59,656 bases of DNA from Candidatus Palauibacter denitrificans. GTDB taxonomy: Bacteria > Gemmatimonadota > Gemmatimonadetes > Palauibacterales > Palauibacteraceae. This document shows, in pieces, positions 16,887-39,492 of this stretch; positions within the stretch are counted from its first letter, which is position 1, and each line of letters begins with the position of its first letter. Where the stretch lies: positions 1 to 59,656 of the forward strand of contig VXMQ01000089.1 in NCBI GenBank assembly GCA_009841015.1, in the 5' to 3' direction. The position numbers and the translations under genes were made by a program. The notes beneath the pieces were generated by a model. That model saw only the letters and a program-made list of their open reading frames with translations, searched no databases and was not told the DNA's origin.

Positions 16887-17846
16887 ATGCAAGTCAAAGG
16901 GTTGAGCCTGTTGGAGTTGGCGGAGAAGTTCCCGACGGAAGCGGCGGCACGGAGGTGGTTCGAGCAGATCGTGTGGCCGGACGGGAACCGGCACTGCCCC
17001 CGGTGCGGGAGTCTGGGGACTTACCGTTGCAGGCACGCGAAGATGCCGTACCGGTGCCGGGACTGCGGGAAGTACTTCTCGGTCAAGACGGGGACGCCGA
17101 TGGCGGGCTCCCCGCTCCCCTTGAGGAAATGGGCCTACGCGATCCACCTGAACATGAGCAGCCCGAAGGGGGTGGCGTCGACGAAGCTCGCGCACGACAT
17201 CGGGGTGACGCAGAAGACGGCGTGGTTCATGCAGCACCGGATCCGGCAGATCTTCGTCCGGGACCGCCCGGCGCGGTTCGAGGGGCCGGTGGAGGTGGAC
17301 GAGGCGTACATCGGGGGGAAGGAACACAACAAGCACGTGGACAAGCGGCTTCGCGAGGCGGGCTGGGCGGCGGGGAAGATCCCGGTGGTGGGGCTCAAGG
17401 ACCGTGCCACGAACAGGGTGTCGGCCTACGTGGTGGGAAGCACGGATGCGAGGACGCTATGGCGGATCGTCACCGCGCACGCGGGGCCGGGCTCGGTGAT
17501 CTACACCGACGAGTACCCGACGTACAGACGGCTGGCGCCGAGCTACCGGCACGGAGCGGCGAAGCACTCTGCGGGGGAGTGGGTGCGGGGCGACGCCCAC
17601 ACCAACGGCATGGAGAGCTTCTGGGCGATGCTCAAGCGGGCGTACATGGGGACGTTCCACGTGCTGAGCCGGAAGCATCTTCAGCGGTACGTGGACGAAC
17701 TGGCGGGCAAGCACAACCTCCGGGCGCTCGGGACCATGGAGAGGATGCGGGAGGTCGTGGTTCACATGGCGGGCAAGCGCCTCACCTATCGGGATCTGGT
17801 GTACGGCCGGGGCGCGGCCCGCTACCCCGCCGTGCCCTACGCATGA
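16887..17846 (+). mobile_element. IS1595 family transposase
   Basis: Zn ribbon CPRC...CRDC, HTH (LAHDIGVTQKTAWFM), DDE motifs VEVDEAYIGG, IYTDEY, HTNGMESFW, KHLQRYVDE. Confidence 0.95.
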
Positions 17847-21090: not shown

Positions 21091-21300
21091 CGGTCGTCGG
21101 CCCAGGCAGGCGGCCCCGTCGTTCATGAGGCGGCGGTGGCGCTCGACCGGGTCCGTGCGCCGATATGCGGGCTTTCGCCCTTGTTATGCACGACGTACGC
21201 GGTCGTCGGCCAGGTAGGCGGCCCAGTCGTTCATGAGGTGGCGCCGGCGCTCGAACAGGTCCGTGCGCCGGTAGGCCGCCTCGACCTTGTTTTGCACGAC
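21091..21300. repeat. Diverged tandem duplication (~100 bp) of the integrase 3' end
   Basis: 21091-21194 aligns with 21200-21300 (ggtcgtcggc...gttcatgagg...gtccgtgcgccg...gcacgac) with substitutions and small indels. Confidence 0.88.
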
Positions 21301-22401
21301 ATGCGCCAGGGCCGCCTCGACGACCTCCCGGGGATGATCCGTGTTCTCGGCCGCCCAGTCGCGGAAGCTCGACCGGAAGCCGTGCGGCACGGCCCCGATC
21401 TCGTGTCTATGCAGGAGTCGGCGCAGCGTTTTCTCCGACAGCGGCTTCGCGCCACCCCGGGAGAACACGAACGGACTGTGGCCGTCGAGCTTTCGCGCCC
21501 GGGCGAGGATCTCCAGGGCGCGGGGACACAGCGGCACGCGATGCTCCCGCTTCGCCTTCATGCGCGCCGCGGGCACCGTCCACACCCTGGCGTCGTCATC
21601 GATCTCCTCCCACTCGGCCCACCGCACCTCGCCCCAGCGCGCCACCGTCAGGACCAGGAACTCGAACGCGAGCGGTCCGGCGGCGGACCGGCTCGATCCT
21701 CGCACCGCCCGGATCGCCGATGCGACCTCCCGATGCGGCAGGGCCCGCATGTGCCGAATCACGCGGTGTTGCGAGCCGAGCACAGGCCGGAGCCGGTCGC
21801 AGGGGTTGCCGGTGCGGAACTCCATCGCGACCGCCCAATCCAGCACCGAGCGGATGCGCTGCAGCACGACCCGGGCGGTGGCCGCCTTGGTGTACCAGAT
21901 CGGGGAGAGGATCTCGAGCAGGTCCGCGCTCGTCACCTCCGACACCGCCACCTTGCCGATGCGCGGGAAGGCGTACCGGTGGAGGCTCGCCATCCAGTCG
22001 CTTGCGTGCTTCTCGCTGCGCCAGCCGGCCTGCTTCTGCTCCAGGACCCGCGCGGCGGCTTCGGCAAAGCTCGGCACGTCCTGGGCGCGCCGCCTCTCCG
22101 CCATCGGGTCGCCGCCCTCGCGGGCCAGCTTGCGGTTCGCCCGCGCCGTCACCCGGGCCTCGGCCAGCGAGACCAGCGCGACGCTGCCGAGTCCGAGGTC
22201 GCGGCGGCGCCCGCGGATGACGAGACGCTGGACCCAGCTCCGGGCTCCGCTCCGCTGGACGAACAGGTACAGCGTGTTGCCGTCGCAGTACCGGCCCGGC
22301 GGCGCCGCGCGCACGAACGCGGCCGAGAGCGCCTTGTCCGGATGACGACCCTTCGGCTTCCCTCCCGGTGCCGGACCGGCGGAGGAGGCCGGGCTATTCA
22401 T
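21184..22401 (-). CDS. P4-like tyrosine integrase with arm-type DNA-binding domain
   Basis: N-terminal GRYCDGNTLYL...RRRDLGLG...SLAEAR; catalytic R (ARWGE), K (MKAKREH), HGFR, LAH and Y (AAYRR) all intact. Confidence 0.95.
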   Translation of the reverse strand: MNSPASSAGPAPGGKPKGRHPDKALSAAFVRAAPPGRYCDGNTLYLFVQRSGARSWVQRLVIRGRRRDLGLGSVALVSLAEARVTARANRKLAREGGDPMAERRRAQDVPSFAEAAARVLEQKQAGWRSEKHASDWMASLHRYAFPRIGKVAVSEVTSADLLEILSPIWYTKAATARVVLQRIRSVLDWAVAMEFRTGNPCDRLRPVLGSQHRVIRHMRALPHREVASAIRAVRGSSRSAAGPLAFEFLVLTVARWGEVRWAEWEEIDDDARVWTVPAARMKAKREHRVPLCPRALEILARARKLDGHSPFVFSRGGAKPLSEKTLRRLLHRHEIGAVPHGFRSSFRDWAAENTDHPREVVEAALAHVVQNKVEAAYRRTDLFERRRHLMNDWAAYLADDRVRRA

Positions 22402-22598
22402 CGCACCATACCGGGTATTTCATCACACCATAATAGAACGGCCTGCGGGTTCCGTGGCGCGAGCCCCGGCGTTATCATGGCCCGCCGCCGGCGGTTCGCG
22501 CGGCCGCCCGCGAGGAAACTCCGGTTCGGGCCGCCTCGTAGAATCGTTTCACCGATGGCGGCCGGTCCCGGATGACACCGGTTGCGGCAAGGACGGCG

Positions 22599-22892
22599 AT
22601 GAGCGTCTTCGTCTTCATCATCATTATCGTGGCGCTCGTCACGTTCGGGGAAGTGGCCCAGAAATGGTTCGCGGCCCGCCCGTCGCCCACGCCGGTGGAA
22701 CCGGGCCGGGACGACGAGATCGAGCGCCTGCGCGAGCATGTCGCGCTGCTGGCGAACCAGGTGGATCAGTTGACGGAGGAGCAGCGCTTCATGACCCGCC
22801 TCCTCGAGGGGGGCGGGCCGGCGAGCGGGGCGCCATCGCACGAGTCTCGCCCCGACGGGCGACCCGATTCACGAATGCGGGGACCGAACTGA
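22599..22892 (+). CDS. Small single-TM coiled-coil protein (PspB-like)
   Basis: N-terminal TM, coiled coil EIERLREHVALLANQVDQLTEEQRF; first gene of the pspA operon. Confidence 0.6.
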   Translation: MSVFVFIIIIVALVTFGEVAQKWFAARPSPTPVEPGRDDEIERLREHVALLANQVDQLTEEQRFMTRLLEGGGPASGAPSHESRPDGRPDSRMRGPN

Positions 22893-23296
22893 TGCTGAAC
22901 AGAGAAGACATAGAGAGCTTCCTCATCCGCACGGAAGCGGACTATCAGGAACTCGACGAGGGACTGTGGATCGTCCACCCTGACGGCGCGAGCGCGGAGC
23001 GGCAGCCGAGGATCCTGGTGAACTACCAGCCGCCCGTGCTCGTCTGCCGCGCGGACATCCGCGACCTCCCGATCGACGATGAGGACCAGCTCGCGCTCTA
23101 CCGGAGGCTCCTGGAGCTGAACGCGGTCGACCTCATCCACGGGGCCTACGGCCTCGAGGACGGAGAGGTCATCCTGAGCGACACGCTGGAGCTGGAGAAC
23201 CTGGACTTCTCCGAGTTCCGCGCGACGCTCGAGAGCCTCACCCTCGCGCTGACGTCCCACTGGGACAGCCTCACCGTCGACATTCCGAACGACTGA
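22892..23296 (+). CDS. CesT/YbjN-like chaperone-fold protein
   Basis: Small acidic protein with LYRRLLELNA..LIHGAYGL, DTLELENLDFSEF; directly before pspA; ATG overlaps the upstream TGA. Confidence 0.75.
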   Translation: MLNREDIESFLIRTEADYQELDEGLWIVHPDGASAERQPRILVNYQPPVLVCRADIRDLPIDDEDQLALYRRLLELNAVDLIHGAYGLEDGEVILSDTLELENLDFSEFRATLESLTLALTSHWDSLTVDIPND

Positions 23297-25313: not shown

Positions 25314-25464
25314 CGGCCCCGTGTCCGGCCTCTACGCTGAGGTCGTCGTCCGCGTCCGTTGATCGTCCGTTGAGAGCCCCTGCGATCCTGTGGTTGGCGA
25401 TGCTGCCGGAAGTTTCCGCGCGGCAGGCCAACGGGTTACGTTCACATCATCCCAGGGATCCTCA

Positions 25465-25956
25465 ATGTCCGAATCGAACACAGACGCAGCAGAACCCCGG
25501 ACGGTGGTCGGCGAGCCCGGCGCCGCTGCGGGCCGCCGTTCGCACGCGGAAGGACACCGCGTAGTGGACGGGATCATGATCACGCGCTGGAATCTGAGCC
25601 TTTCGCTCACCCTCGCACTCGCGGTCGTGGCGGGCGGCTTCTCTATCCTGTGGGAGCGGACGACCGCCCTTCACGCGACGCAACTCGAACTCGTCACGCG
25701 GGTGACTCGGGTTGAGGTCCAGGTTGAAGGTCTGCGCGAGGACGTCACGGCTCTCCGCGAGGAACTGCACGAGAGCGTGGCGGCTCTCCGCGAGGAGATG
25801 GCAGCTCTCCGCGCGGAATTTCGTGAGGAGATGGCGGCTCTACGCGCGGAGCTTCGTGAGGAGATGGCGGCTCTACGCGAGGAGCTTGGGGGGGATATTC
25901 GGGAACGGGGCGATCTGACCCGCGCGCACGAGACGCTGGAGGTCGGCGCGCAATGA
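25465..25956 (+). CDS. TM-anchored repeat coiled-coil protein
   Basis: TM segment LSLSLTLALAVVAGGFSILW, then 11-aa repeats REEMAALRAE(L/F) from 33-bp DNA repeats; stop overlaps the trpS start. Start may be 25576. Confidence 0.65.
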   Translation: MSESNTDAAEPRTVVGEPGAAAGRRSHAEGHRVVDGIMITRWNLSLSLTLALAVVAGGFSILWERTTALHATQLELVTRVTRVEVQVEGLREDVTALREELHESVAALREEMAALRAEFREEMAALRAELREEMAALREELGGDIRERGDLTRAHETLEVGAQ

Positions 25957-27029
25957 CCGACCGGGCCCCGTCGGGGCCGCGCAAGCGCGTGTTCAGCGGG
26001 ATCCAGCCGACGGGGCACGCGCATCTCGGGAACTATCTCGGGGTGTTCCGGCGCTGGGCGGCGATGGTCGACGAGTACGAGTGCTACTACTGCATCGTCG
26101 ACCTGCACGCGATCACGCGCGAGTACGAGCGCGAGGATCTGCTGCGGCGCGTGTTCGATCTCACGGTGTCGCTCGTGGCCTCGGGGATCGACCCGGAACG
26201 CTGCACGCTCTTCGCGCAGTCGCACGTGCCCTACCACAGCGAACTCCAGTGGCTGTTCAACACGGTCACGCCGGTGGGCGACCTGGGGCGGATGACGCAG
26301 TTCAAGGAGAAGTCGCAGGGCCGGGAGTCGGTGAACGCGGGCCTTCTCAACTATCCGGTGCTGCAGGCGGCCGACATCCTCCTCTACCGGGCGCACTTCG
26401 TGCCGGTGGGCGAGGACCAGCGCCAGCACCTCGAGCTGTCGCGGGAGGTGGCGCGGCGCTGGAACGCGCGCTTCGGCGACGTCTTCCCGGAGCCGGAGAC
26501 GCTGGTCGGGACGGGGGCTCGCGTCCGCGGGCTCGACGGCGTGGCGAAGATGTCGAAGTCGAAGGACAACACGGTGCGCATGGTGGCCGAGCCGGACGAA
26601 CTGTGGGCGCGGCTGCGCACCGCGGTCACGGACCCGGCGCGGGTGCGGAAGGACGATCCAGGGAATCCACACGTGTGCAACGTCTTCGCCCTGCACGAGT
26701 TCTTCACCGATCCGGCGGAGCGGGAGGAGATCGAGATCCTCTGCCAGACGGCGGGGATCGGCTGCGTCGCCTGCAAGCGGCAGCTCACGGACAACGTGGC
26801 CGAGGACCTGGCCCCGGTGCGCGAACGCGCGGCGGAACTGCGTGCGCACCCGGAGCGGGTGATCGAGATCCTGGCGGCGGGGGCGGAGCGCGCCCGCGCC
26901 GAGGCCGCCCGCACGATGGAAGTGGTGCGTGAGCGCATGGGCGTCGGCCCCCGCACGCTGGACGCCGACCTGCCCGGCGTGGCCGGAGCCGCCACCGCAG
27001 CGGCCGCCACCCACGGCGACGGCGGCTGA
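25953..27029 (+). CDS. trpS: Tryptophan--tRNA ligase
   Basis: FSGIQPTG..HLGNY, YPVLQAADIL, VPVGEDQRQH, KMSKS. Confidence 0.97.
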   Translation: MTDRAPSGPRKRVFSGIQPTGHAHLGNYLGVFRRWAAMVDEYECYYCIVDLHAITREYEREDLLRRVFDLTVSLVASGIDPERCTLFAQSHVPYHSELQWLFNTVTPVGDLGRMTQFKEKSQGRESVNAGLLNYPVLQAADILLYRAHFVPVGEDQRQHLELSREVARRWNARFGDVFPEPETLVGTGARVRGLDGVAKMSKSKDNTVRMVAEPDELWARLRTAVTDPARVRKDDPGNPHVCNVFALHEFFTDPAEREEIEILCQTAGIGCVACKRQLTDNVAEDLAPVRERAAELRAHPERVIEILAAGAERARAEAARTMEVVRERMGVGPRTLDADLPGVAGAATAAAATHGDGG

Positions 27030-27050: not shown

Positions 27051-28097
27051 TTGCGCCGCTTCGTGATCTGGATGTACGCGCCTGAGACCCCCCACTGGTC
27101 GATGCCGGAGTGGTCGTTCGAACGCATTCGCGGCGCCCTGGACCCGGAGTGGGAGATCGAGTCGGTCCGCGTCGCGCTCGAGGCGACGGGCGACGGCGTG
27201 CGCGTGACGCCGCCGGAACTCCTGGCAGCCGTGGCCGACGCGGAGGTCTACTGCGGGTGGGGGATCCGGCGCGATGTCTTCCGTGCCGCCCGCAAGCTGT
27301 GCTGGTTCCACTCGGGCGCGGCCGGGGCGCGGAACTCGCTCTTCGAGGAGATGCGGGAGAGCGACGTCATCTTCACGAACTCGGCGGGCATGTACGCGGA
27401 CTCGCTGGCGGACCACGCCCTGGCCGGCATCCTGTACTTCGTCCGCGGCCTGGACCTGGCGGTGCGGGCGCAGCGCGAACGCGAGTGGGTCCAGTCCGCG
27501 CTGAACTCGCCCCGCAGCCCCCTGCACGCCGCGCCCGCCGCCGGCGAGGTGGCCGGGGCCTCGCTCGGCATCATCGGCTACGGCGGCATCGGATCGGCGC
27601 TCGGCCGCCGCGCGCACGCCGTCGGCATGCGAGTTCAGGCCATTCGCCGAACCGTGGGCCCAAAGCCCCCCGAGCTCGACCGCCTGGACGGGCCCGGCCA
27701 TTTGCCCAAACTCCTGGAATCCTCGGACTTCGTCGCCCTCACCGCCCCCGAGACGCCGGAGACCAAGGGCCTGCTCGGCGCCGCGGAACTCGCGCGCATG
27801 AAGCCGGGCGCCGTGCTCATCAACCTCGCCCGCGGCACCCTCGTGGATGAAGCCGCGCTCGTCCGGGCGCTGGAGGGGGGACACCTGCGCGGCGCAATGC
27901 TGGACGTGTTCAGGATGGAGCCGCTCCCGTCCCGCCACCCACTGTGGGGGCTGGAGAACGTCCTCATCACCCCGCACGTGGGCGGCACCTCGGCCCGCTT
28001 CTGGCAGCGCGAGACGGACCTCATCGTGCGCAACATCTCCCGCTACCAGCGCGGCGCCCCCCTCGAGAACCAGGTAGACAAGACGCGCGGCTACTGA
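27051..28097 (+). CDS. D-2-hydroxyacid dehydrogenase family protein
   Basis: GIIGYGGIG, LINLARGTLVDE, LDVF..EPL, ITPHVGG. Confidence 0.92.
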   Translation: MRRFVIWMYAPETPHWSMPEWSFERIRGALDPEWEIESVRVALEATGDGVRVTPPELLAAVADAEVYCGWGIRRDVFRAARKLCWFHSGAAGARNSLFEEMRESDVIFTNSAGMYADSLADHALAGILYFVRGLDLAVRAQREREWVQSALNSPRSPLHAAPAAGEVAGASLGIIGYGGIGSALGRRAHAVGMRVQAIRRTVGPKPPELDRLDGPGHLPKLLESSDFVALTAPETPETKGLLGAAELARMKPGAVLINLARGTLVDEAALVRALEGGHLRGAMLDVFRMEPLPSRHPLWGLENVLITPHVGGTSARFWQRETDLIVRNISRYQRGAPLENQVDKTRGY

Positions 28098-28180
28098 CCT
28101 TGAAGCCTTCCCGATGATACCACCTTGAGTCCTGCCCGGAACTTGGGTTCGAGACACCAACGAACCCGAGACGCTGGAGA
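28097..28180 (+). repeat. ~85-bp leader repeat, copy 1
   Basis: Aligns with 28790-28879; 28-bp identical core cctgcccggaacttgggttcgagacacc; hairpin GGGTTCG...CGAACCC; ends in GGAGA. Confidence 0.9.
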
Positions 28181-28191
28181 ACGCCGTCCTC

Positions 28192-28440
28192 ATGGGCGAC
28201 GAGAAACTGCGCGAGAAAATGCGCCGGTCGCCCGCCGGCTGGAGGCTTCGCGAACTTCACAAGCTCTACCGCAGCTACGGGTTCCACCGACGTGAAGGGA
28301 GCAAGCACGCGATCTACCATCATCCAGACCATCCGCAGATACGAGCGACCGTTGCGCGGCACGACCCTCCGCCTAACGTGTATGTGAGGGACGCCTTGGA
28401 TCTCATCGACAGGCTTGAAGCAGCGGGAGGTGTCCGGTGA
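28192..28440 (+). CDS. HicA-like toxin
   Basis: GFHRREGSKHAIYHHP (GSxH motif), small basic protein upstream of a HicB-like gene. Confidence 0.78.
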   Translation: MGDEKLREKMRRSPAGWRLRELHKLYRSYGFHRREGSKHAIYHHPDHPQIRATVARHDPPPNVYVRDALDLIDRLEAAGGVR

Positions 28441-28676
28441 GCACTAAAGCAGGGAACGTCAACTACTACATGAGTCTGCCCTACGGCGAGCGGGTCCTGC
28501 AGGAAGTTCTCGACGACGGATCGTCGTACTACGTCGCCCGCGTCGTCGAGTTGGAGGGGTGCACGAGCCACGGCGATACGCCCGACGAGGCGCTATGGAA
28601 CCTCCAGGACGCCAAGCAACTCTACATCGAAACGATGCTTGAAGACGGTCTCAAGCCACCGCTTCCCCGGAACTAG
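28437..28676 (+). CDS. HicB-like antitoxin
   Basis: YVARVVELEGCTSHGDTPDEALWNL...PLP HicB pattern; GTGA overlap with the toxin. Confidence 0.85.
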   Translation: MSTKAGNVNYYMSLPYGERVLQEVLDDGSSYYVARVVELEGCTSHGDTPDEALWNLQDAKQLYIETMLEDGLKPPLPRN

Positions 28677-28752
28677 GCAGTACAGCGGGCGACATGAATC
28701 GCAGCAACCGTGCTCGACAGGATGCGCGGCTACTGCGTCGCGGCCACGGCGC

Positions 28753-28772
28753 GACGTTCCCGCAGGAACGTC
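28753..28772. repeat. Palindrome copy (one mismatch)
   Basis: GACGTTCCCGCAGGAACGTC. Confidence 0.85.
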
Positions 28773-28789
28773 CCCGGACCCCTCCCGCT

Positions 28790-28879
28790 ACCTTGAAGGC
28801 GGTCCCCGATGACGCCACATTGAGCCCTGCCCGGAACTTGGGTTCGAGACACCGAAAACGAACCCGAGACACGAGGAGA
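28790..28879 (+). repeat. ~85-bp leader repeat, copy 2
   Basis: Aligns with 28097-28180. Confidence 0.9.
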
Positions 28880-28884
28880 CGGTG

Positions 28885-29064
28885 ATGACGGCAGAAGGTT
28901 GGACAATCATCGGGGCGACCATCGCGCTCGTCGGCATATTCGCGCCGGTGCTCATGGGGATCCGCCGCGACCTTACGGATCTGCGTGAACGCATGGCCAG
29001 ACTCGAAGGTCTGTTCGAAGGCTTCATCCGCCGGGACGAAAAGGCGCCGAGCCACTCCGCCTGA
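28885..29064 (+). CDS. Small TM plus coiled-coil protein (RERMARLEG)
   Basis: RBS GAGGAG; hydrophobic N-terminus; DLRERMARLEGLFEGF similar to the end of 7567-7956. Confidence 0.7.
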   Translation: MTAEGWTIIGATIALVGIFAPVLMGIRRDLTDLRERMARLEGLFEGFIRRDEKAPSHSA

Positions 29065-29080
29065 GGCGCGAACCCCCGGA

Positions 29081-29100
29081 GACGTTCCCGCGGGAACGTC
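29081..29100. repeat. Perfect 20-bp palindrome
   Basis: GACGTTCCCGCGGGAACGTC. Confidence 0.95.
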
Positions 29101-29135
29101 CATGACGCGCCATTGACCCTAGCTTCGGAAGTTCC

Positions 29136-30029
29136 ATGAGAGATCTTTCAGGTGTGCATCCGCCCGTGGCCACGCCGTTCGGCGAGGACGGCGAGTTGGC
29201 GCTCGACGCGTTCGACAACAACCTGCGCGAGTGGCTCTCGCACCCCATCGCCGGCATCGTCGTGGCCGGTTCCACGGGAGAGGCGCCGCTCCTCGACCGC
29301 CGGGAACTGTGGAAGCTGGTGGAGACCACGGCCGCGCGCATCGGAGACCGTACGCTGACCGTCGGAACGGGGGCCGAGTCCACGCGCGAGGTGATATTCG
29401 TGACCCGCAAGGTGGCCGAGCTTGGCGCGCACGCCGTCCTCGTGCGCTCTCCCTCATACTACCTGAAGGCGATGCGGCCCGATGTCGTGCGCGATCACTT
29501 CCTCGCGGTGGCGGACGCGTCGCCCGTGCCCGTCGTCCTCTACCACATCCCCCAGTTCGTCCCCGTGCACCTGACGCCCGATCTCGTGGGCCGGCTCGTC
29601 GAACACCCCAACATCATCGGGATCAAGGATTCCTCGGGCGATCTCCGGAACCTCGGCCAACTCATCGAGGCGTGCGGCCGCAACGCGCAGGTGCTCGTGG
29701 GCTCCGGCGCGCTCCTCTACGCCGCGCTCGAGGCCGGGGCGGCCGGCGGCATCCTCGGCGTGGCCGTGATCGCGACCCGCTCCTGCTGCCAGATCTACGA
29801 CGCCTGGAAGGAGGGCGACCACCGCCGCGCCGGAGCCATGCAGGAACGCGTGGCGCCGCTCCACAAGAGCCTCGTGGCGGAGGGCGGCATCGCCGCGGTC
29901 AAAGCCGCGCTCGACCGCCTCGGCCTCTACGGCGGCAGCCCCCGCAGCCCGCTGCAGCCCGCCGACGCCGCCAAGCTCGCCAAGGTCGACGCCGCCCTCG
30001 AAGCCGCCACCCTCGGCGTCTCCGCCTGA
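29136..30029 (+). CDS. Dihydrodipicolinate synthase (DapA/HOGA) family aldolase
   Basis: TPF, GSTGE, PVVLY, IIGIKDSSGD Schiff-base Lys motif. Confidence 0.9.
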   Translation: MRDLSGVHPPVATPFGEDGELALDAFDNNLREWLSHPIAGIVVAGSTGEAPLLDRRELWKLVETTAARIGDRTLTVGTGAESTREVIFVTRKVAELGAHAVLVRSPSYYLKAMRPDVVRDHFLAVADASPVPVVLYHIPQFVPVHLTPDLVGRLVEHPNIIGIKDSSGDLRNLGQLIEACGRNAQVLVGSGALLYAALEAGAAGGILGVAVIATRSCCQIYDAWKEGDHRRAGAMQERVAPLHKSLVAEGGIAAVKAALDRLGLYGGSPRSPLQPADAAKLAKVDAALEAATLGVSA

Positions 30030-30058
30030 AGCTGACGGCAGATCTCCAGACTCGCGCG

Positions 30059-31435
30059 ATGAACGAACTCGACGCCGCCATCGCGGAATGGCACCGGGTT
30101 CGCGGGGACATCGCGCCCGAGGACGACGAACGTCTGTGGCAGAAGCTCCGCCTCGAGTGGAACTACAACAGCAACCACATCGAGGGGAACACGCTCACGT
30201 ACGATGAGACCGTCCTCCTGCTGCTTCACGATCAGGTCGCCGGGTCCCACCCGATGCGCGACTACGAGGAGATGAAGGCGCACAACGTCGCGATCGAACT
30301 CGTCCGCCAGCTTTCGACCGCCGAGCAGCCGCTGACCGAGGCAGACATCCGGGAACTGAACCGGAAACTCCTGAAGGAGCCCTTCTGGAAGACGGCGGAA
30401 ACGCCCGATGGCGGGACGACGCGCAAGTGGATCGAGCCCGGGAAGTACAAGACGCAGCCGAACCACGTGAGGACGCGCACGGGGGAACTCCACCGGTTCG
30501 CGGAACCCGAGGAGACGCCCTCACGGATGGAGGAATGGGTACGCCGGTTGCGGAACGATCTGGACCGGACGGATTACCCGCTCCCCGAGTTCCTGGCCGA
30601 ATCACACTGGTCGTTCGCGAACATCCATCCCTTCGACGATGGAAACGGACGCACGGCACGACTGATCACCAACTACATCCTGCTCCGCAAAGACCTCCTC
30701 CCCATCGTGATCAAGAGCGCCGACCGCGACCGCTACCTCGCTGCCCTGCGGCAGGCGGATGCGGGAAACGGCCAGCCGCTCGCCGACTTCATGCGGGCTC
30801 AGCTGCTATGGTCGCTCGACCTCGGCGTCCGCGCCGCCCGCGCCGAGCCGATCGCCGACCCCGAGGACCTCGACAAGGAGATCTCCCTCTTCGTGGAGGG
30901 CCGAAGGCCTCGCGAGACGATCAAGTTCGACGCCGAAACCGTTGACGCTATCTACGACTTGGACGTTCGCCCCACCGTGGAGGCCCTCGACCAACGTATG
31001 GAGAAGTTCGTGCCGCTTTTCCGCGACTGCACGGGAACTTCCTTCATCGTCGCGGGCTCGTGCAGGATGGAAGGCCGTGCCGTCCTGCAAGCTCCGGACT
31101 GGGATCGGTTCCGCGCCGACCCGGTATTTGACACGGACGGGTTTGCTCTCGGCCTGCCCGACATAACCCTCATGCGCAGGTATAATCTGGGGGACTATTG
31201 CGGTCCGTCCGATCAGGGATTCTCTCTGCTACTTGAGGTCAAATGGTTGCTGGGGACGAGCGGGCGACGGTTCACGGCGACCATCAATGGGAAGGTTGTC
31301 GAGGGTGCGTCCCAGGGACTCCCGCTCGCGCGGCTCGAAACGGAATCGACGAACGTAGAGGAGAGAGTCGAGACGATCTGCCGGGCCGTCATGGGCGAGA
31401 TCCGGCTTCAGTCGCAGCAGCCGGATCCGGCTTAG
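30059..31435 (+). CDS. Fic family protein with C-terminal extension
   Basis: YNSNHIEGNTL and HPFDDGNGRTAR motifs. Confidence 0.92.
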   Translation: MNELDAAIAEWHRVRGDIAPEDDERLWQKLRLEWNYNSNHIEGNTLTYDETVLLLLHDQVAGSHPMRDYEEMKAHNVAIELVRQLSTAEQPLTEADIRELNRKLLKEPFWKTAETPDGGTTRKWIEPGKYKTQPNHVRTRTGELHRFAEPEETPSRMEEWVRRLRNDLDRTDYPLPEFLAESHWSFANIHPFDDGNGRTARLITNYILLRKDLLPIVIKSADRDRYLAALRQADAGNGQPLADFMRAQLLWSLDLGVRAARAEPIADPEDLDKEISLFVEGRRPRETIKFDAETVDAIYDLDVRPTVEALDQRMEKFVPLFRDCTGTSFIVAGSCRMEGRAVLQAPDWDRFRADPVFDTDGFALGLPDITLMRRYNLGDYCGPSDQGFSLLLEVKWLLGTSGRRFTATINGKVVEGASQGLPLARLETESTNVEERVETICRAVMGEIRLQSQQPDPA

Positions 31436-39474: not shown

Positions 39475-39492
39475 GACGTTCCCGCGGGAACG
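39475..39492. repeat. Palindrome copy
   Basis: GACGTTCCCGCGGGAACG between two convergent stop codons. Confidence 0.9.

Follow-up and report, generated by a model that had tools for sequence, protein, structure and literature searches.

How does one and the same leader come to stand in front of two unrelated genes, side by side, at a single chromosomal site? The question is raised by a 59,656-nt stretch of DNA from Candidatus Palauibacter denitrificans (contig VXMQ01000089.1, positions 1 to 59,656; hereafter the window), in which two short units lie in tandem between a D-isomer 2-hydroxyacid dehydrogenase gene (dh) and a gene of the DHDPS/dapA family (dapA). Unit 1 consists of a leader, a hicA-hicB toxin–antitoxin (TA) pair (hicAB) and a palindrome; unit 2 consists of a leader, a gene for a small membrane protein (TM, transmembrane) and a palindrome. 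The original prediction was that this is either a gene cassette system served by a recombinase in trans or a portable leader that captures small accessory genes. Upon comparing the locus among relatives, we determined that the dh-dapA interval is a hypervariable insertion and recombination hotspot in Candidatus Palauibacter, and we consider it probable that recombination among lineages has duplicated a native promoter and 5' untranslated region (5'-UTR) at this site, with one copy becoming fused to hicAB.

Two units with a common leader

The anatomy described in the original prediction was reproduced in every particular. The leaders of the two units are 86% identical over about 80 nt (BLAST within the 3.76-Mb source genome, E 1e-19) and have in common an identical 28-nt run (CCTGCCCGGAACTTGGGTTCGAGACACC), the hexamer TTGAAG, a 10-bp stem (CTTGGGTTCG/CGAACCCGAG, including one U.G pair) closed by loops of 9 and 12 nt, respectively, and a GGAG ahead of the gene start. 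Palindromes end both units, with one mismatch at 28753–28772 and without any at 29081–29100, and the array begins at the stop codon of a housekeeping gene, leader 1 starting at 28098 directly after the dh TGA (28095–28097). As had been supposed, this is not a plain tandem duplication: the leader is joined to two cargos that are not related, and in all aligned copies (four of four leader-hicA and 11 of 11 leader-TM copies) the break is sharp and falls directly behind the hairpin, after GAGAC. In the window, leader 1 passes into the sequence upstream of hicA at 28172/28173, and this leader-hicA junction is identical in all four copies. Since leader 1 directly adjoins the dh stop codon and no palindrome intervenes, hicAB in the window may be read through from dh.

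The dh-dapA interval as an insertion hotspot

The window derives from a metagenome-assembled genome (MAG) of 3.76 Mb in 219 contigs, 93.7% complete, which we compared with 60 genomes of relatives, 35 from congeners (Candidatus Palauibacter) and 25 from other genera, labelled G001 and so on. For the interval itself, the window and a second contig of the same assembly, C52, were compared with 21 congeners having a dapA at least 86% identical, and with four more distant congeners. In 18 of the 21 close congeners, as in the window and C52, dh (85–96% identical among congeners) and dapA lie on one stretch, separated by 95 nt to 19.3 kb; in the four distant congeners the interval measures 20–1192 nt (20 nt in G018). 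The intervals of 95–122 nt in G028 and G025 hold palindromes only, and the larger ones reach 3–4 kb, 6.5 kb (G013) and 19.3 kb (G003). The two genes are on separate contigs in G014 and G035, and they are 2.2 Mb apart in G006, which is a single contig.

Across these genomes, the interval contains at least eight types of cargo. In addition to hicAB and TM, these include a hybrid histidine kinase-response regulator (G012, G006), LRR/Big_2 proteins (G019, G027, G008, G016, G014, G003), giant Ig-repeat proteins (G003, G013), an EcoRII-like nuclease (G014), a DUF6941-hicA-hicB segment (G032) and a T2SSE ATPase (G001). The cargo genes have a GC content at third codon positions (GC3) of 0.70–0.83, as compared to 0.91–0.94 in the core genes.

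Units are present, absent, reordered or decayed from one genome to the next. TM stands alone in G002, G023 and G021 and is found behind larger inserts in G027, G019, G003 and G012; hicAB stands alone in G033; hicAB precedes TM in the window and in G006; and TM precedes hicB in G011. C52 has lost leader 1, hicA and the 5' portion of hicB, and its TM is truncated; G022 has an internal deletion in hicA, and G012 has lost hicA and retains a truncated hicB. Only leader remnants are left in G010 and G032, and the hairpin has been lost in G031. Gain, loss and reordering of units do occur between genomes; the other ingredients of the cassette proposal fared less well, as the palindrome proved to be genome-wide (see below) and there is no recombinase gene in or beside the array.

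The leader and its native gene

The original prediction had named, as an outcome that would speak against it, a leader confined to an invariant locus. The locus is far from invariant, but the leader is indeed confined to it. Besides the two copies in the window, the assembly contains only one more, on C52; matches were found in 11 of the 35 congeners and in none of the 25 genomes of other genera, and every match lies between dh and dapA. Remnants missed by the main search were recovered in G010, G031 and G032. A scan of public genome contigs for the leader core returned eight matching stretches, each of which is the dh-dapA locus, and JGI metagenome contigs yielded no match to the core.

In G025, where the dh-dapA interval is nearly empty, the TM orthologue has CesT/PspA genes as neighbors, some 6 kb upstream of trpS, and is preceded by a diverged leader that retains TTGAGG-17 nt-CACATT and has a hairpin of other sequence. 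That a diverged leader accompanies the TM orthologue at this other site indicates that the leader belongs to this gene; judged by sequence and position, it is the native upstream region of TM. The proposed portability of the leader around the genome found no support.

The leader would comprise a -35-like TTGAAG, a 17-nt spacer, a -10-like CACATT and, within a few nucleotides of the probable start of transcription, a 10-bp RNA hairpin. The spacer between the hexamers is 17 nt long in 14 of 15 copies, as it is in G025, the exception being leader 1 of the window (15 nt, with CACCTT); its sequence varies, whereas both hexamers are conserved, as would be expected of a promoter. Covariation in the stem, proposed earlier as a check, was assessed with 16 leaders: pairing is maintained in 159 of 160 cells, compensatory changes are seen at two pairs, several substitutions produce G.U, and only one of 500 shuffles reached the observed score. 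These G.U-type changes, together with the 3-nt variation of the loop, make a coding-strand RNA hairpin more plausible than a protein operator. The operator interpretation was rejected, given that the loop length shifts by 3 nt and that the changes to G.U do not preserve a palindrome. An Rfam scan of 27900–29300 (E<=10) found nothing on leaders or palindromes and gave only three chance-level hits, all of them in dapA. Taken as a whole, the leader has the features of a putative promoter plus 5'-UTR.

The hicA-hicB pair

The hicA stop codon (28438–28440) overlaps the GTG start codon of hicB at 28437, a 4-nt overlap with the toxin gene upstream of the antitoxin gene. This overlapping toxin-first arrangement is the inverted order given as typical of hicAB in a review (PMC11594946). 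HicB exceeds the 27-bit cut-off of HicB_lk_antitox with 31.3 bits (residues 26–77 aligned to model positions 8–58 of 123) and matches the HicB chains 6g1c (E 0.0078) and 6g1n (E 0.016) in the PDB. At 79 aa, it has no C-terminal helix-turn-helix (HTH) or ribbon-helix-helix (RHH) DNA-binding domain, a domain that the same review presents as common but not universal, HicB proteins without it being called common.

For HicA, an exhaustive search detected 281 homologues at E<=1e-3, and a word-index search only three close relatives. Among 43 aligned homologues, 23 match HicA_toxin (best E 2.5e-9), the window protein itself remaining below the 27-bit cut-off, and in this alignment H44 is invariant and H39 nearly so. 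The top PDB match of the HicA profile is a weak one, to 1whz (E 0.058); a single-sequence search of the PDB returned nothing at E<=1. NCBIfam searches with TM, HicA, HicB and DUF6941 identified no family at E<=0.01.

Traces of hicAB were found at eight loci (the window, C52, G006, G011, G012, G022, G032 and G033). Four are intact and four lack hicA through different deletions, two of these with an intact hicB, and none retains hicA alone. This loss of hicA, and never of hicB alone, is the order of decay expected if HicA is an active toxin, as it presumably is. The hicA gene of G032, which has no leader, overlaps the DUF6941 stop codon, and the leader-hicA fusion is therefore secondary. Because HicB has no DNA-binding domain, the pair must make use of a borrowed promoter or, in the window, of read-through from dh.

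Mosaicism of the locus

C52 carries a syntenic copy, about 93% identical, of at least 10 kb of the window region. Its flanks are 98.6–99.0% identical to G023, while within the interval the remnants of hicB and TM, the filler and the leader are nearest to G006/G012, and the 130-nt filler matches sequence upstream of the G012 histidine kinase gene. C52 is probably a co-binned second lineage, and the bin would thus be mixed at the dh-dapA locus.

The window is itself a mosaic. In trees, its trpS and dh group with G033, C52 and G023 (support 100/100) and its dapA with G002, G027 and G003 (support 100/99). Leader 2, TM and dapA are 97–99% identical to those of G002, and hicAB is nearest to that of G006 (96.4%). 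G002, the sister of the window on the dapA tree, has the order dh-spacer-palindrome-leader-TM and lacks unit 1. Among the leaders, the 5' halves track the host lineage, and the sequence after GAGAC tracks the cargo.

The sequencing runs that contain this stretch are mostly labelled sponge metagenomes. In contigs of the sponge runs X1 and X2, both window-type junctions and the two C52-type deletions are present, and a contig of an RNA library from another study shows a hicAB-only allele joined to dapA.

A dispersed palindrome at gene ends

The terminal palindrome is by no means restricted to the two units. The 20-mer GACGTTCCCGCGGGAACGTC has 20 exact copies in the assembly, 61 when up to three mismatches are allowed, and none in the reversed genome; further sites in the window lie at 39475, 53330 and 57726. 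The 16-nt core (CGTTCCCGCGGGAACG) is present in 54 copies in the source genome and in 7–74 copies in 23 of the 35 congeners; it was found in none of the 25 genomes of other genera and in none of the backwards controls. Of 65 copies with at most one mismatch, 45 lie outside open reading frames (ORFs), 28 are located no more than 60 nt downstream of a predicted gene end (4.5% of random positions are so located), and 19 sit between convergent genes. The sequence of the palindrome, not merely its structure, is held constant across copies.

The palindrome is predicted to form a hairpin with an 8-bp stem. No T-run follows either of the window palindromes, and a terminator scan of 27900–29300 marked neither, the two terminator-like sites that it reported being unrelated to palindromes. 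We regard the palindrome as a clade-specific, generic gene-end element, putatively terminator-like or similar to repetitive extragenic palindromic (REP) elements. Like REP elements and hairpin terminators, it is a fixed short palindrome with tens of copies per genome, mostly outside ORFs, near stop codons and often between convergent genes. In contrast to REP elements that have a RAYT, it has no cognate Y1 (RAYT) transposase gene in the assembly: a search for PF01797 in this 93.7% complete assembly gave no match, the control search being positive in six of 14 reference genomes. It differs from intrinsic (Rho-independent) terminators in having no T-run and in its invariant 16-nt core, which a plain terminator does not need. 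A reading as a DNA uptake sequence was discarded, 54–65 copies per genome being too few. As the palindrome occurs genome-wide near gene ends, finding it behind the hicB region and behind TM is no evidence for or against cassettes.

Origin of the units

These observations are most readily accommodated by exchange between lineages, and we infer the following course of events. Recombination between diverged alleles of co-occurring lineages would have duplicated a block made up of the dh 3' end and the leader, with homologous exchange in the flanks or repeats and an illegitimate joint at the other end. One of the two leaders would have been joined, right after the hairpin, to the hicA-hicB pair. 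The repeats of the leader, the dh 3' end and the palindrome would be products of such events as well as substrates for more gain, loss and decay.

A number of points weigh against this account, which we nevertheless hold to be the likely one. The copies of the dh 3' end that recur at insert borders fit site-specific integration as well as they fit illegitimate recombination. The two-leader layout is also found in G006, in G012 and in the decayed C52, and is thus older than any event specific to the window. A strict sigma-70 scan of 27900–29300 found no promoter-like site, and the proposed -10 hexamer agrees with the consensus at only three of six positions. The gene map against which palindromes were located is a crude heuristic based on ORFs and GC3, and 20 of the 65 palindromes fall inside its ORFs. 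Since the MAG also holds a second lineage (C52), the conflict between flank trees may in part reflect a chimeric contig; the short contigs of X1–X3 bear out every junction locally, without extending to long-range linkage, and the source sample may be among these runs. The single RNA-library contig that spans a related allele may be due to DNA carry-over.

The foremost alternative is site-specific integration, in which the last 21 or so nucleotides of dh serve as an attachment (att) site, and small modules without an integrase of their own (a leader and cargo, with or without a palindrome) as well as larger islands are inserted and excised in trans by a tyrosine recombinase encoded elsewhere, for instance the P4-type integrase 4.6 kb upstream of dh, accreting in tandem. 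Unit 1 is a 639-nt segment between 20-nt direct repeats of the dh 3' end, and its leader and that of unit 2 are 695 nt apart. A search of the whole assembly with the 21-mer (GACAAGACGCGCGGCTACTGA), allowing up to three mismatches, gave four matches, all at the locus or its C52 copy, where the same two copies of the dh 3' end are 20/21 identical. Copies of the dh 3' end thus lie at distal insert borders in independent cases, namely the window, C52 and G013; in G013, the 21-mer is found at both borders of the 6.5-kb island, with similarity reaching about 28–32 nt. The DUF6941-hicAB segment of G032 lies between 35-nt repeats, which begin at CTGA and contain the palindrome; G022 and G003 have micro-duplications precisely at the dh stop codon; and unit 1 is missing in the sister G002. 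Furthermore, an integrase orthologous to the P4-type tyrosine integrase of the window (83–94% identity) is encoded 4.5–11 kb from dh in at least ten congeners, no orthologue was found nearby in the genomes with a short or empty interval (G025, G028 and G010), and in G006 paralogues of the integrase are encoded several kb from each of the two broken ends of the locus.

Against this, the length of the repeats is not constant (12, 20, about 28–32, 35 and about 200 nt). Variable repeat lengths are predicted by homologous recombination on one side plus illegitimate recombination, and a shared core by an att site at a 3' end; the borders in the window, C52 and G013 do have the 21-mer in common, but the extent of the repeats differs among loci. 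In G006, a dh 3' pseudogene fragment of about 200 nt lies with a degenerate palindrome at a third place, 129 kb from dapA, and in G006 and G032 the similarity between the sequence after hicB and the dh 3' end beyond the 20–21-mer does not score above shuffles. There is no integrase in units 1 and 2 or in the inserts of G012, G019, G027, G008, G016, G003, G013 and G032, and five genes, including trpS, separate the P4-type integrase from the dh stop codon. The association between integrase and filled interval is confounded by phylogeny, as the empty sites form one clade, and the conflict between flank trees points to homologous exchange. No circle junction of unit 1 was detected in contigs of three DNA runs and one RNA-library run, contigs being unable to show rare forms. 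A joint in X18 that "goes back 695" is explained by a related hicAB-only allele. On balance, we judge site-specific integration to be unlikely, if worth serious consideration. Its more elaborate form, in which the dh stop codon is a dedicated att site for stacked mini-modules (promoter-hairpin, cargo and palindrome) mobilized in trans by the P4-type integrase, with crossover at the leader core or the 21-mer, appears more doubtful still; if true, these uncultured Gemmatimonadota of sponges would possess a cassette platform other than an integron.

A single tandem duplication of the dh 3' end, leader and gene, followed by gene replacement and no ongoing dynamics, would leave the direct repeats of the leader and of the dh end, 695 and 639 nt apart, that are seen. 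However, the content and order of units vary over at least 20 loci, either unit can occur alone (TM in G002/G023, hicAB in G033), the order is reversed in G011, the leader 5' halves track lineage rather than cargo, and the interval and flanks of C52 come from different lineages, all of which makes a one-off event very improbable.

Integron gene cassettes come to mind as well, with which the Palauibacter array has in common small accessory units in series, a TA pair included. TA modules are common as integron cassettes. Most integron cassettes are promoterless and are read from a common promoter, and their attC site is an imperfect inverted repeat of some tens of nucleotides that is specific to the cassette. 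Recombination by an IntI-type enzyme at attC-like palindromes can be dismissed as barely credible since, for all that the units are gene-sized and each ends in an inverted repeat, the 20-bp palindrome occurs 54–65 times genome-wide near gene ends, the array has neither an adjacent intI nor an attC site, the nearest integrase has an arm-binding P4-type architecture, each unit has its own promoter-like leader, the hicAB alleles of G033 and G022 have no terminal palindrome, and Rfam recognized nothing in the region outside dapA.

Comparison with other systems

What appeared to be a new cassette system turns out to be a well-resolved hotspot of integration and recombination in a lineage of uncultured, sponge-associated bacteria. 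In chromosomal integration hotspots (Oliveira, Touchon & Rocha 2017; PMC5635113), intervals between conserved core genes concentrate accessory genes of rapid turnover. The dh-dapA interval resembles such hotspots in lying between syntenic core genes and in that most of its states have no recognisable mobile-element gene; it differs from them in that the inserts begin, at base resolution, at a stop codon and in its duplicated promoter/5'-UTR and copies of the flanking gene 3' end.

Like islands inserted at gene 3' ends by tyrosine recombinases, the locus has direct repeats of the target 3' end, serial inserts and a P4-type integrase nearby. Unlike them, its repeats range from 12 to about 200 nt, and the integrase lies outside the inserts, beyond five genes. 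In Haemophilus influenzae, hicAB reportedly lies beside the hif pilus cluster, in the company of "intergenic dyad sequences" that are said, in a study of 1998, to be thought to mobilise loci; Palauibacter belongs to another phylum, and the repeat sequence and the flanking genes are different. The main text of the Palauibacterales ecogenomics paper (PMC10469786) makes no mention of toxin-antitoxin, integrase or palindrom.

If the proposed origin is right, the locus offers an example of a TA pair without a regulator of its own that has gained the promoter and 5'-UTR of a neighbor, and it documents gene flow between co-resident lineages at the resolution of a single locus. Two by-products are perhaps worth more: a clade-specific, invariant gene-end palindrome of 16–20 bp with no known transposase, and an unannotated family of transmembrane proteins.

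Features and neighboring genes

The ORFs between 25.9 and 32.8 kb of the window are, in order, trpS, dh, hicA, hicB, TM, the dapA-like gene, Fic and purA; the features of the region are compiled in Table 1. The dapA-family gene scores 169.5 bits with the NCBIfam dapA model, which is under its cut-off of 206.

Table 1. Positions of the two units, their repeats and surrounding genes in the window
Feature	Position	Strand	Remarks
P4-type tyrosine integrase gene	21184..22401	-	Arm-DNA-bind_3 + Phage_int_M + Phage_integrase (Pfam); 4.6 kb upstream of dh
trpS	25953-27029		Upstream neighbor of dh
D-isomer 2-hydroxyacid dehydrogenase gene (dh), left core flank	27051..28097	+	Pfam 2-Hacid_dh_C 174.5 bits; GC3 0.93
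Last 21 nt of dh (GACAAGACGCGCGGCTACTGA), repeat copy A	28077..28097	+	
Leader 1	28098..28172 (shared part), to 28191 before hicA	+	TTGAAG-15 nt-CACCTT; hairpin 28142-28170
hicA-like toxin gene, 82 aa	28192..28440	+	Pfam HicA_toxin 22.7 bits (<27); GC3 0.70
hicB-like antitoxin gene, 79 aa	28437..28676	+	N-terminal domain only; Pfam HicB_lk_antitox 31.3 bits
dh 3'-end copy B, right boundary of unit 1	28716..28735	+	18/20 identical to 28077-28096
Palindrome 1 (GACGTTCCCGCAGGAACGTC)	28753..28772		One mismatch; member of genome-wide 20-mer family
Leader 2	28790..28870; gene start 28882/28885	+	TTGAAG-17 nt-CACATT; hairpin 28837-28868
TM gene, 60 aa	28882..29064	+	Homologues begin at ATG 28885; N-terminal TM helix
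Palindrome 2 (GACGTTCCCGCGGGAACGTC)	29081..29100		Perfect; member of genome-wide family
DHDPS/dapA-family gene, right core flank	29136..30029	+	Pfam DHDPS 192 bits
Fic-domain gene, second variable insert (dapA-purA interval)	30050..31435	+	Pfam Fic 65.4 bits

The dapA-purA interval is a second small variable site adjoining the first. It contains a Fic gene in the window, G002, G003, G008, G012 and G035; purA directly follows dapA, with no Fic, in C52, G006, G019, G021, G022 and G027.

When compared to NCBIfam at E<=1e-5, the integrase matches only the general model PRK09692. Its family has seven matches at E<=1e-60 in the assembly, in which PF00589 has 18 matches in all, and up to 16 (G012) and 15 (G006) in congeners. 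Beside the integrase gene lie an IS1595-family transposase gene (16887–17846, +) and a CesT/Tir-chaperone-like gene (22454–23296, +, GC3 0.73), and the stretch to the left of trpS looks partly accessory too.

The small membrane protein family

The 60-aa TM protein matched no Pfam or NCBIfam family, a literature search for its motif string RLEGLFEGF returned no paper, and a search of a protein atlas gave only unnamed clusters and generic single-helix look-alikes. Its relatives are 53–98 aa long; they vary in the TM helix and in the number of RDxxxL heptads and have in common an invariant C-terminal block of 19 residues (DLRERMARLEGLFEGFIRR), the apparent invariance of which is inflated by the word-index method, as this favors shared words. 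With 48 word-index matches, the family is present in 36 of 401 Gemmatimonadota genomes, often in multiple copies or in tandem (G018, G180). In the window, a 188-aa ORF at 25390–25956 (+) encodes a single TM helix along with AALREE(M/L) repeats and is possibly a larger relative of this family; in G025, a homologue of this ORF (58% over 107 aa) is located directly upstream of the TM gene.

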